From an uncultured delta proteobacterium (GTDB taxonomy: Bacteria > Desulfobacterota > Syntrophia > Syntrophales > Smithellaceae), in assembly GCA_963753975.1 (NCBI GenBank), contig CAVWEH010000002.1:384001-448000 (forward strand): 64,000 bases of DNA, in the 5' to 3' direction. Of this stretch, positions 24,926-45,332 are shown in pieces; position 1 is the first letter of the stretch, and the number at the start of each line of letters is the position of its first letter. Below the pieces are notes generated by a model, which worked only from the letters and a program-made list of their open reading frames with translations, was not told where the DNA came from and ran no database searches. The position numbers and the translations under genes are program-made.

Positions 24926-25279
24926 TGGTGGAGGCGGCGGGAGTCGAACCCGCGTCCGAAAACCTTCCGCTGGAGAATCTACGTACATAGCCTTCGATTT
25001 AAACCTTCACGCAGGTTTGCTCCCGAAGGCGGGATCGCACTACGCTATCCTGAAAGTGTTTCGCCGCCCTCCCCCAGGCAGAAAGTTTGGCTATCCTGTC
25101 TAAATGACGTCCTTACAAAGCCAACAGGAAAACCGTGCAGGACGTTAGCCGACCTAAGCGGCTAAGGCGTAATCGTAGTTGTCTGCGATTATATGTTTCC
25201 TACCTATTTAACGAGGCCTGTAGGAACCTCGGTGCGCATCTACAACTTCAAATGTCCCCGTCGAAACCGTGACGCCCCC
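24926..25279 (-). ncRNA. ssrA: Transfer-messenger RNA
   Basis: 5' GGGGGCG / 3' CGCCUCCACCA acceptor stem with G3-U, T-arm GTTCGA; tag ORF 25186-25154 encodes ADNYDYALAA*; smpB nearby. Confidence 0.97.
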
Positions 25280-36292: not shown

Positions 36293-38406
36293 TTATTTTT
36301 TCACCTTCAGCAGCCGGGCATTAATCGCGACGATAATCGTGCTCGCTGACATCAAGACCGCTCCCATGGCCGGACTTACGATAATCCCCGTGCTATAAAG
36401 AACCCCGGCCGCAAGCGGTATAGCCAGAGCATTGTAGCCCGTCGCCCAAGCCAGATTTTGCACTAATTTATTATAGGTGGCTTTGGACAGACCGATAATA
36501 CTGAGAATATCCTGCGGGTTGCTTTTCACCAGAATAATATCCGCCGTTTCCAGCGCCACATCCGTTCCCGCGCCGATAGCGATGCCGACATCCGCCTGAG
36601 CAAGAGCGGGAGCATCGTTAATTCCATCGCCTGTCATGGCGACAACAAATCCTTTGGATTGCACCTCTTTTACTTTTGCCGCCTTCTCACGGGGTAATAC
36701 TTCGGCAAAATATTCATCAAGACCAAGCTCGTCGGCCGACCCATCTGGCAACCAGGTGGTTGTCGCCGGTAAGCATCATACATTTTATACCTGCCGCCTG
36801 CAAACGTGCGACAGCGTTTTTCGCTTCCGGGCGGATCAAATCCGCCAGGGCAATCGCTCCGAGCAATTTGCCTTCCCTCAGAACAAAAATCACGGTTTTG
36901 CCCTGTTCATGAAAGCGGAGAATTCTGTTATCCTGAATATCCAAATTATTTTCTTTAATGTAGCGAGGGCTGACTACTTTTACGTCTTTTCCGTTCACCT
37001 TCCCTTCGGCGCCGCTGCCCGGAATGTTCTTGAAGCGCTCCGGGTGGACAATTATTTTTGCAGCCGCTACAATGCCTCTGGCAATGGGATGTTCCGAATA
37101 CGATTCGATGGACGCAGCATACATCAACAGGTCTTCCCTAGCTACTTCCCCGTCAAATATTACCACATCCGTCACACCGAACTTTCCTTCGGTCAGCGTC
37201 CCTGTTTTATCGAAAATAACCGCTTGGACGTTTCTTGCCTGTTCGAAAGCCGACTCTGTTGCGGATTAAAAGCCCGTTGACAGCCGCGATGGAAGTGGAA
37301 ACGGCAACAACCAGCGGCACCGCCAGACCCAGCGCGTGCGGACAACTGATCACCATTACCGTAACCGCCCTTTCCAGGGAAAAAGCAAAATCCTTATTCC
37401 CTATGAAAAACCAGATCAAGATTGTCAGAACGCTCACTGTTATCGCGATTACCGTAAGGAAAAACGCAAAACGGTTCGCCGTATCCTGTGTTTTCGATTT
37501 ACTTTCCTGCGCTTCTTTCACTAATCGAATAACCTGCGCTAAAAAAGAATCCTTGCCCAATTTTTTTATCAGCACAGTAAGAGAACTATCGCCGTTAACT
37601 GATCCGCCGATTACTTCCGAGCCTTTATTTTTCTTCACCGGGTTGGATTCTCCGGTCAGCATCGCTTCGTTGATATAAGTCTCGCCTTCCTCTATTTCCC
37701 CATCCGCCGGCACTTTCTCGCCCGGTTTAACAACGACTCTATCATTGAGATTCAATTCCTGCAGAGGAACATCTTTTATGCTTCCATCAGCCATTATCTT
37801 ATGGGCAGAGGCAGGCATAAGGTTTGCCAGTTTTGTGAGCGCTTTGGAGGCGCCCATTACCGAACGCATTTCTATCCAGTGCCCCAAGAGCATGATGTCA
37901 ATCAAAGTGGCGAGCTCCCAGAAAAATATCGAGCCCGGCAATCCAAAAACAACAACACTGCTGTATAAATAAGCCGTGGTGATGGCAACGGCAATAAGCG
38001 TCATCATTCCCGGCCGGGAATATTTGAATTCTTCGGCCATCCCTTTCAAGAAAGGCCAGCCGCCATAGAAGAAAATAAATGATGACAAAACAAAAAGAAT
38101 ATAAACGTCGCCCTTAAAGCGCAGAGCGTTTCCGATATCGAGCAGCATTTGAATCATGGGGGTAAGAATTAAAATGGGCCCAGTTACCGCGAGCGAAATC
38201 CAGAACCTCTTTTTAAAATCGCCGATCATATTCTCATGGCCTCCCTGATGGTCGTGATGATGATCTTGCGGAGGTTGATGGTTTGTTTGCTTATGCGGGA
38301 TTGCGGGATAAGCGCTGCCTGTATGCTGCCCGTGCATGTGCTCCTGGTGCTGGTGATTATCTTGCTTTGCTGGGAGGGGGTTTATACGTGTGATTAGATT
38401 TGTCAT
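36293..38406 (-). CDS. copB: Copper-translocating P1B-type ATPase (CopB-like, CPH), two +1 frameshifts (~37254, ~36736)
   Basis: His-rich N-terminus, [16 protein letters not shown] (in corrected frame), [10 protein letters not shown] and MSAST motifs. Confidence 0.88.
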
Positions 38407-44158: not shown

Positions 44159-44186
44159 TTGACAAATATTTAGAAATCTATATAAT
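44159..44186 (+). promoter_or_regulatory. Sigma70-type promoter of the retron-like operon
   Basis: Perfect TTGACA-N16-TATAAT. Confidence 0.8.
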
Positions 44187-44189
44187 AAA

Positions 44190-44665
44190 GTCAATCAAGC
44201 CGACGATTCGTTGGTAGCTCTTTGAAAATGAAACGGAGATATTTATGTCCGAAATTTGGCATCTCCTCGATTCCAGGTCAAGTGAGACCTTCCCTGTTTT
44301 ATAGGGGATAACAGACTGAGAAATCAGTCACCACATGAAAATGTGGTTTTTTAAAAGGCCATGGTGATGCGAGGTCCGTTGCCTATGATTCTGTATAACG
44401 CAGTCTGAACTGCGCAGAAAAGCATAGACAGCAGTCAATAAAGATTATTTTCTTGACGCCCCGTACAACCTGTCGCCACCGGTGGTTCACCCATGGATAA
44501 AATTGCGACGATTGAACAGCCGGCGGCCATAGCATGGCCGCAACCCGTGCGGGCAAAGGAATCAAAGAGCGTTCTGATTGATTTTCTTTGAAGTGAGGCG
44601 ATGCCATTTTATCAGGTGATAAGATCATTGCCTCCCTAATGCAGGGTAATCTAGAGAAAGGAGGC
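44190..44665 (+). ncRNA. Putative retron ncRNA (msr/msd-like or hybrid leader RNA), ~470 nt
   Basis: No long + strand ORF; long-range pairings 44191-44197/44575-44581 and 44217-44225/44562-44570; about ten local hairpins including two GAAA tetraloops; upstream of a retron-type RT. Confidence 0.72.
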
Positions 44666-44957: not shown

Positions 44958-45002
44958 AAACCTGCACGGTTTTTTAAAACAATCCTCAATGAGGTGATAT
45001 TT

Positions 45003-45332
45003 ATGAAAGTAGGAGAGATAATTAAATTGATCAGGACCAAACGGGGGATATCCCAAAAGGAAATGGCAGACCAGTTTGGAATATCGCAAAATTACTTATC
45101 GCTTATAGAAACTCATAAAAAGAGACCAAGTATAGAAACAATCGACACTTTTGCAAAGAAATTTGGCATATCAAAAGAAGCCCTTTTGTTCGTTACGTCT
45201 GAAATACCTTCAGAGCTGGACGAAAATGCTAAACAGGATTTTAAAAAATTACAAGATAATATCCTTTATCTAATACTATTCGATGCCAACCGAGGTATTA
45301 ATTGTCTGCCGCGCGCCCAAAACGCCATCTAG
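45003..45332 (+). CDS. XRE/Cro-CI family helix-turn-helix protein
   Basis: IRTKRGISQKEMA..FGISQNYLSLIE..KKRPS; GAGGTG RBS; overlaps RT start. Confidence 0.92.
   Translation: MKVGEIIKLIRTKRGISQKEMADQFGISQNYLSLIETHKKRPSIETIDTFAKKFGISKEALLFVTSEIPSELDENAKQDFKKLQDNILYLILFDANRGINCLPRAQNAI

Follow-up and report, generated by a model that had tools for sequence, protein, structure and literature searches.

The window analysed here, a stretch of 64,000 nucleotides from a contig of an uncultured delta proteobacterium, carries a small operon on its plus strand, in which a folded non-coding RNA leader is followed by the genes for a 93-aa small protein (SP), an HTH protein of the Cro/C1 type and a retron reverse transcriptase (RT). 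The features of the locus are listed in Table 1. A first-pass annotation, made from the letters of the sequence, had described an RNA of about 470 nt upstream of the RT. The association with the RT was borne out; the RNA does not adjoin the RT gene directly, since first the SP and then the HTH gene lie between them. The HTH gene and the RT start overlap by 31 nt, and the gene order is that of the type VI retrons Vpa2 and Sen3.

Table 1. Features of the retron locus (positions in the window)
Feature	Coordinates	Strand	Remarks
Sigma-70-type promoter, 12/12 consensus	44159..44186	+	TTGAC hexamer at the same place in 15/15 leaders
P0 5' arm	44191..44197	+	Pairs with 44575-44581; probability 0.88; own partner beats foreign partners, p = 0.005 (10 representatives)
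5' stem-loop right before a1	44199..44215	+	95.5% of cells paired; double changes in 3/6 pairs
a1-like arm GCTCTTTGA	44217..44225	+	Invariant in 15/15
Four short conserved hairpins (44275-90, 44291-308, 44314-29, 44330-47)	44275..44347	+	96-98% of cells paired
Variable long hairpin domain and last hairpin (44523-44541)	44349..44544	+	Long and short hairpin in homologues
IR1, 5' arm of long-range SP-closing helix	44545..44553	+	Pairs with 44961-69
Alternative hairpin, purine box 44554-61 with pyrimidine box 44582-90	44554..44590	+	90.6% of cells paired
a2-like arm	44562..44570	+	Pairs with a1; 91.7% of cells paired
Riboregulator, hairpin 44595-44634 hiding anti-SD (44630-35)	44595..44665	+	82.7% paired
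SP, small protein, 93 aa	44676..44957	+	Homologue here in 18/18 close loci examined
IR2 (44961-69), then run of six U	44961..44975	+	U-run of at least 5 after the stop in 9/15
Small hairpin holding HTH ribosome site	44984..44994	+	
Cro/C1-type HTH protein, 109 aa, ATG 45003	45003..45332	+	PADLOC HTH_VI; Pfam HTH_3
Retron reverse transcriptase, 292 aa	45302..46180	+	PADLOC RT_VI best; NAxxH, YCDD, VTG

The HTH protein matched the PADLOC model HTH_VI with an E-value of 3e-23, 14 orders of magnitude ahead of the next model (1e-9), and it is 47-53% identical in 16 homologues. For the RT, the RT_VI model scored 264.7 bits against 249.2 for RT_III-A, a margin of 15 bits, compared with the 186 bits by which RT_VI leads the other models in a core type VI RT. 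The RT motifs are intact (NAxxH at 94-98, YCDD at 185-188 and VTG at 232-234) and the best solved relative is the Ec86 RT (E 3e-31). In its available part, the published classification defines type VI retrons by a clade 3 RT, a Cro/C1 HTH protein and often a small helical protein, with clade 3 also holding types IV and V (PMC7736814). An RT tree of 56 rows, with the long branches L206 and L207 left out and the references labelled from their neighbouring genes, placed the lineage as a separate clade (100/100) outside an 88/78 group of type IV/V/VI-like references; a 100/96 branch joined it with these references, against the II-A, Ec107-like and I-C ones. The locus is taken to work like a type VI retron, and the lineage is probably a deep branch of that type. 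No description of this lineage, and no paper on retrons, reverse transcriptase and ncRNA together in Desulfobacterota, was found in the literature searched, where the supplements of two type VI preprints may list members; the available part of the Minerva preprint (10.64898/2026.09.22.753630) does not treat a system of this kind.

Among the close loci the SP measures 77-95 aa and is basic (charge +4 to +11); its C-terminal half is hydrophobic as well as amphipathic. Its structure model, of modest confidence (pLDDT 69, pTM 0.33), is all-helical with two long helices. No match was found in PADLOC, Pfam or Foldseek (PDB), and the ESM Atlas gave no usable one. PADLOC had no family for these SPs, nor for seven SPs of other type VI-like loci; the SP clusters of type VI retrons named in the available sources are cl2075, cl2760, cl3272 and cl3897. 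A single-sequence search for relatives returned only the SP itself, and a 17-member profile matched 48 of 799 candidates, none of them with a Pfam domain. By analogy, the SP is likely a toxin, and with its homologues it forms a candidate toxin family without annotation.

The cassette is AT-rich (GC 0.29-0.40), with the RNA itself at 0.44-0.47 and the flanking genes at about 0.50-0.64. The RT was not found in any of the 14 same-genus genomes searched, many of them incomplete, and the gene to the left of the cassette has other neighbours in one relative. The cassette is likely an acquired island. In this 95% complete genome, recC was not found, nor were RecB or AddA above the family cut-off; what turned up were weaker helicase matches. 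At G000:C2:647318-650108 (minus strand), an 843-aa helicase frame stands ahead of a second, short frame whose AddA match covers the C-terminal portion of the model and stays below the cut-off; the pair reads as a divergent or split AddA-like gene. Elsewhere in the window, a heavy-metal P-type ATPase-like gene, named by eye from its translations, lies on the minus strand in three frames (37207-38406, 36717-37175 and 36293-36751, spanning 36293-38406), possibly through frameshifts or assembly errors.

Homologues were collected through the RT, with 44 of 1680 candidate proteins matching at E <= 1e-40; 27 of these, 46-72% identical and near full length, formed alignment A1. From the scans, the best 80 of 492 confirmed metagenome stretches, the best 80 of 535 stretches from genomes and 40 viral stretches were kept, and 5 of 401 phylum genomes matched the RT. 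Among the loci so collected, 22 encode an RT 44-56% identical to the query, and all 18 with enough upstream DNA have the HTH gene and a homologous SP gene in the layout ncRNA-SP-HTH-RT. The named carriers are mostly Thermodesulfobacteriota. The leader set comprised 14 full leaders, or 15 with the window, after leaving out the duplicates L086 and L204, L004 (contig end) and L014 (leader replaced). In L014 (positions 1-572) the SP-HTH-RT cassette keeps only the riboregulator hairpin and the anti-SD, with the 5' part of the RNA replaced by unrelated sequence; this locus could be a decayed element, a rearrangement or a misassembly.

Folding of positions 44190-44665 gave -164.7 kcal/mol, compared with -129.5 +/- 6.2 for 100 dinucleotide shuffles (z = -5.68), and none of the shuffles folded as well, in agreement with the dense folding claimed at first pass. 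Twenty-five other 476-nt stretches of the window gave z-scores of -2.4 to +3.1 (12 shuffles each), and all 15 leaders folded with z of -3.9 to -8.3 (20 shuffles each). All eleven helix pairs that had been named were recovered, displaced by no more than 1-2 nt from the places given. In the ensemble of 44190-44665 the outer helices have probabilities of 0.88-0.89, most of the small stems 0.79-1.0 and the 44235-66 stem 0.41; the 44291 stem is part of the minimum free energy structure and covaries among homologues. The 44359/44496 helix, although present in the sequence, has an ensemble probability of 0.0 and was rejected. A coding role for the leader was also rejected, the longest plus-strand ORFs being 29-48 aa, with no conserved ORF seen in the homologues.

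Covariation was found among the 14 related loci, in which compensatory changes preserve the helices. In a MAFFT alignment of the 15 leaders, 81.9% of cells pair and double changes occur in 31 of 53 pairs, where shuffles gave 15.8 +/- 2.2 (0/500 reaching 31) and slid controls 4-13; in this count two of the ten helices (a1:a2 and the HTH hairpin) are out of register, MAFFT having shifted the window row by two columns. That the leader might be a new RNA class unrelated to the RT, or a product of chance folding, is very improbable. Rfam had no family for 44190-44665, the one match in the window being a tmRNA gene (24926-25279, minus strand, RF00023, 183 bits), and an RNA model of the 5' domain found no match in the core type VI loci among 91 sources, as might be expected of a new class. 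Among these same sources, however, the model matched only the 15 training loci and L206, all of them with the RT-HTH-SP cassette; L206, which lies outside the training set, was found at E 5e-6 and has the same layout. In 150 phylum genomes the model picked out L206 once more, plus a single weak hit (E 8e-4) that has no RT in its neighbourhood, and chance folding is excluded by the covariation. The leader is a real conserved RNA of a known kind of system, and not a free-standing new RNA class.

The 5' end had been well placed at first pass, as the promoter ends at 44186 and predicts a transcription start at about 44191-44193. The 3' end had been set at 44665, by the SP ribosome-binding site, and the prediction here is instead an RNA of some 790 nt that continues across the SP gene and ends at about 44975-44990; the U-run ending at 44975 is a possible 3' end of such a hybrid RNA. 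The leaders of the 15 close loci measure 388-483 nt, that of the window being the longest (483 nt), and 682-810 nt separate the leader start from the HTH gene. The evidence for a longer unit comes from a long-range helix, IR1:IR2, that encloses the SP gene. An IR helix of 8-16 bp, lying 110-136 nt before the SP start, was found in 15/15 loci with the top or a tied score. In a cross-pairing test with 10 representatives, of which L003 and L085 are related to each other, cognate arms paired at -14.3 kcal/mol and foreign arms at -7.0 (permutation p about 1e-5), with the cognate partner best in 8/10; this is the strongest covariation of all helices tested. Since the covarying helix surrounds the SP gene, the unit under selection would include that gene, as a hybrid RNA of about 790 nt in the window.

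The closing helices named by the first-pass annotation, P0 and the a1/a2-like pair, stood up, as did its remark that the RNA is longer and more branched than a textbook msr-msd, whereas the SP reading frame and the downstream arm IR2 had been missed. P0 prefers its own partner in the cross-pairing test (Table 1). For a1:a2 the same test gave p = 0.8, as expected because the helix is invariant; recounted with the window row still shifted, it has no double change within the 15 leaders, and the one double change occurs in L206. The best partner of a1 is a2 in 12/15 loci and the SP ribosome site (SD) in 3/15, and the latter is also the best partner in the sister locus L034. G44224, which lies at the 3' end of a1, could be the branching guanosine: it is invariant in 15/15 leaders, although unpaired or wobble-paired (its C partner being absent) in 5/15, and its position is a C in 3/9 sister loci.

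The four short hairpins at 44275-44347, with double changes in 15/18 core pairs, are likely the msr, the RT-binding part. The variable domain that follows is 27-42% identical to its homologues, compared with 43-54% for the 5' domain; in the 15 leaders it consists of one long and one short hairpin, with 118-218 nt to a2, and its complement folds as DNA with z = -3.0. It is likely the msd template. Downstream of IR1, the alternative hairpin holds a2 and the P0 3' arm in its loop; double changes occur in 4/7 of its pairs, its cross-pairing p is 0.006, and it is also present in L206. The riboregulator hairpin (44595-44634), with double changes in 6/9 pairs, competes with pairing of the anti-SD to the SD (44659-64); the anti-SD motif occurs in 10/15 loci, with a cross-pairing p of 0.007 for anti-SD:SD. 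No conserved loop-to-loop repeat of at least 6 nt, of the kind of the 7-nt direct repeat in the msd and riboregulator loops of Vpa2, was found in the 15 loci. Conserved repeats here take the form of purine boxes and pyrimidine boxes instead, with an AAGGA-type box ahead of a2 that recurs in the SD (8/15) and TTTGAA present in a1 and again after a2 (8/15).

The RNA could be a canonical retron, with a free-standing msr-msd of about 390 nt (44191-44581) closed by P0 and a1:a2, primed at G44224 and giving constitutive msDNA, the SP gene being merely the next cistron. The probabilities of 0.88-0.89 for both closing helices when 44190-44665 is folded alone, and the invariance of a1 and G44224, fit this arrangement. 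It is nevertheless improbable, as the helix that spans the SP gene, IR1:IR2, covaries most strongly, the alternative hairpin in which a2 lies buried is also conserved, and published tests of type VI retrons found an extended transcript, according to the available parts of the two preprints (10.1101/2025.10.22.683967; 10.64898/2026.04.27.721009).

Helix a1:a2 crosses IR1:IR2, and a2 and the P0 partner fill the loop of the alternative hairpin, so that the two sets cannot form together as nested helices. Given these crossing helices and the place of a2 within a conserved hairpin, the RNA probably has two conformers. Folded alone, 44190-44665 prefers P0, a1:a2 and the anti-SD-hiding hairpin (0.88-0.89); with the SP gene added, the unconstrained full-length ensemble gives 0.91 for the alternative hairpin, 0.74 for anti-SD:SD and 0.0 for IR1:IR2. 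When constrained, the conformers lie within about 4 kcal/mol of each other in 8/12 loci (the window: 1.2); in the a1:a2 conformer the SP ribosome site is harder to open in 7/12 loci and easier in 2/12. With the 23 nt 5' of a2 blocked, these being the first bases of the putative template, opening of the SP site became easier by more than 1 kcal/mol in just 1/11 loci and harder in 3. Folding calculations on two candidate rules, that msDNA opens the ribosome site and that the a1:a2 conformer is the open state, failed or pointed the opposite way.

We favour, with a probability of about 0.58, a reading of the leader as the 5' non-coding portion of a type VI-like retron operon, likely anti-phage, in which an RNA predicted at about 790 nt, extending through the SP gene, would keep a likely toxic SP down until phage infection lets reverse-transcribed DNA build up. 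It builds on the observed operon layout, protein families and conserved helices. The model is Retron-Vpa2, whose preprint, in its available part, describes a hybrid RNA of about 470 nt holding the msr-msd and the SP toxin gene, an HTH protein that represses reverse transcription, accumulation of msDNA upon the action of phage recombination proteins, and derepression of SP translation by this msDNA (10.1101/2025.10.22.683967). By analogy, the RT and HTH proteins would bind the RNA, with the HTH protein holding reverse transcription down; phage recombination proteins would release it, and the msDNA would lift the repression of SP translation, leading to arrest of the infected cell. From the anatomy of this lineage, the RNA would probably alternate between a conformer with its 5' end closed and one with the SP gene closed, and copying of the template, putatively the whole or a portion of the variable domain (44349-44561; at most about 210 nt), would shift the balance. 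One possible priming site is G44224 on a1:a2, from which copying would open up both the alternative hairpin and IR1:IR2; the other lies just 5' of IR1, in line with the Vpa2 mapping in the available part of that preprint (10.1101/2025.10.22.683967). We take the Vpa2 logic as the most likely, since selection has maintained a dedicated anti-SD module. Weighing against this reading are the folding results on blocking and on the two conformers, the low local cost of opening the SP site in the window, the probability of 0.0 for IR1:IR2 in the unconstrained full-length ensemble, the small RT_VI margin, the C in place of G44224 in 3/9 sister loci and the lack of a Vpa2-type loop-to-loop repeat among the 15 loci. 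As recC, and RecB or AddA above the cut-off, were not found in the genome, the trigger may differ from the RecBCD link of the E. coli tests.

A serious though less probable alternative keeps the type VI-like retron and its long RNA but has them work as in Sen3, for which the available part of the preprint reports that SP and ssDNA are constitutive, that the HTH protein neutralises SP and that the trigger is RecBCD inhibition (10.64898/2026.04.27.721009). SP and ssDNA would then always be made, the HTH protein would neutralise SP as a protein, and the helices would be a scaffold and not a translation switch. The SP, with its size of 77-95 aa and its amphipathic C-terminal helix, is nearer to the described Sen3 protein than to that of Vpa2, the stem-loop before a1 is a reported Sen3 feature, and the pairing of a1 with the SP ribosome site in 3/15 loci and L034 is as reported for Sen3. 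The SP ribosome site of the window is also not unusually closed in local context: opening it there costs 3.7 kcal/mol, less than in all 16 control genes (6.4-14.8); in the full RNA the cost is 11.5. Compensatory changes, however, maintain both the separate anti-SD and its competing hairpin, which points to selection for control of translation, and Sen3 is described as watching RecBCD; in this genome recC was not found, nor RecB or AddA above the cut-off.

Going further than our favoured reading, one may picture a deep-branching lineage outside the described type VI groups, in hosts without a found RecBCD, whose RNA of about 800 nt would be a two-state switch of three purine and three pyrimidine boxes. 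Copying from G44224 would unzip the alternative hairpin and the toxin-closing helix, making the RT a mechanical trigger of toxin translation in response to a signal other than RecBCD inhibition. We consider this extended proposal rather doubtful.

Type VI retrons invert the usual retron logic, and both preprints, in their available parts, leave two questions: the site at which reverse transcription is primed, and the way in which its DNA product switches the toxin on. The present lineage is divergent enough to give clear covariation on the key helices, including the one that closes the toxin gene, and its a1:a2 module is separate from the ribosome site; paired-mutation tests of both questions are therefore easy to design. 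It extends the system to anaerobic hosts of the Thermodesulfobacteriota type, one of them without a RecC match. New here are the larger RNA, the separate a1:a2 module with a riboregulator, the unannotated SP family and the host range. The RNA had been proposed at first pass as possibly an undescribed class; its gene order, HMM matches, RT tree, 5' stem-loop and SP-flanking repeat instead match the type VI hybrid RNAs, as these are described in the available parts of the two preprints (10.1101/2025.10.22.683967; 10.64898/2026.04.27.721009).

Long leaders are not unique to this lineage, since those of other HTH-linked loci measure 323-462 nt, that of the window being the longest measured. A second type VI-like lineage (L017, L018, L019 and L205) has SP genes for 110-133 aa upstream of the RT, overlapping the HTH gene in L017-L019, and structured leaders of 413-462 nt that are unrelated to the present RNA model. 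The leader of L218, a type VI locus with a helical SP, contains three tandem copies of a unit of about 24 nt. In the leaders of L172/L217, L208, L215 and L184 a short motif (GGCGA, or GACGAC in L184) occurs twice in the last 135 nt, and its complement (TCGCC, or GTCGTC in L184, a double change) lies at about +23, counted from the predicted start; this type of repeat was seen in 4/11 short-SP, Vpa2-sized loci with a called promoter. If the motif corresponds to the 7-nt repeat described for Vpa2, msDNA would mimic the 5' segment and could displace it from the riboregulator.

Compared with Retron-Vpa2, as described in the available part of its preprint (10.1101/2025.10.22.683967), the locus shares the ncRNA-SP-HTH-RT order, the SP gene inside a structured transcript, an inverted repeat that returns the 3' end to a point before the riboregulator, hairpins around the SP ribosome site and a short hairpin after the long one, just before the repeat. 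The Vpa2 authors liken the SP-closing repeat to a1/a2, and a helix at the place of IR1:IR2, described for both Vpa2 and Sen3, was also seen in Vpa2-sized loci. The two differ in size: Vpa2 RNA is reported at about 470 nt in all, with a 55-aa SP, whereas the window RNA is predicted at about 790 nt (~1.7x), with an SP of 93 aa. The agreement of the first-pass length of about 470 nt with that of Vpa2 is a coincidence, since the Vpa2 figure includes the SP gene and the leader alone here already measures 483 nt. In the loci that resemble Vpa2, a likeness inferred from sizes alone, leaders are of about 248-286 nt and the start lies 435-494 nt from the HTH gene, compared with 388-483 and 682-810 nt in this lineage, and the present SP has no detectable kin among them. 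Unlike Vpa2 as described, this lineage has four conserved msr-like hairpins, a separate a1:a2 and an a2 within an alternative hairpin.

Sen3, of the type VI lineage cl2075, resembles the locus in its conserved stem-loop right before the 5' inverted repeat, which was shown to be essential in Sen3, in IR1/IR2 flanking the SP gene, in two predicted conformations and in an SP some 80 aa long whose C-terminal helix is amphipathic, according to the available part of its preprint (10.64898/2026.04.27.721009). There, the ncRNA falls within some 280 nt of the SP start, and its basal stem conceals the ribosome site of the SP gene, whereas in 12/15 loci here a1 has as its partner a dedicated a2, some 110 nt upstream of that start, with the riboregulator in between. 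Partner specificity of IR1:IR2 is clear in this lineage, whereas the Sen3 preprint reports no significant covariation for that stem; the host phylum also differs, and RecC was not found in the genome here. With a canonical msr-msd such as Ec86, as far as the available parts of the sources describe it (PMC7736814; PMC10849725), the locus shares the RT motifs NAxxH and VTG, an a1/a2-like repeat and a conserved G at the 3' end of a1, but its RNA is much longer, includes a coding region and contains a second long-range helix that crosses a1:a2.
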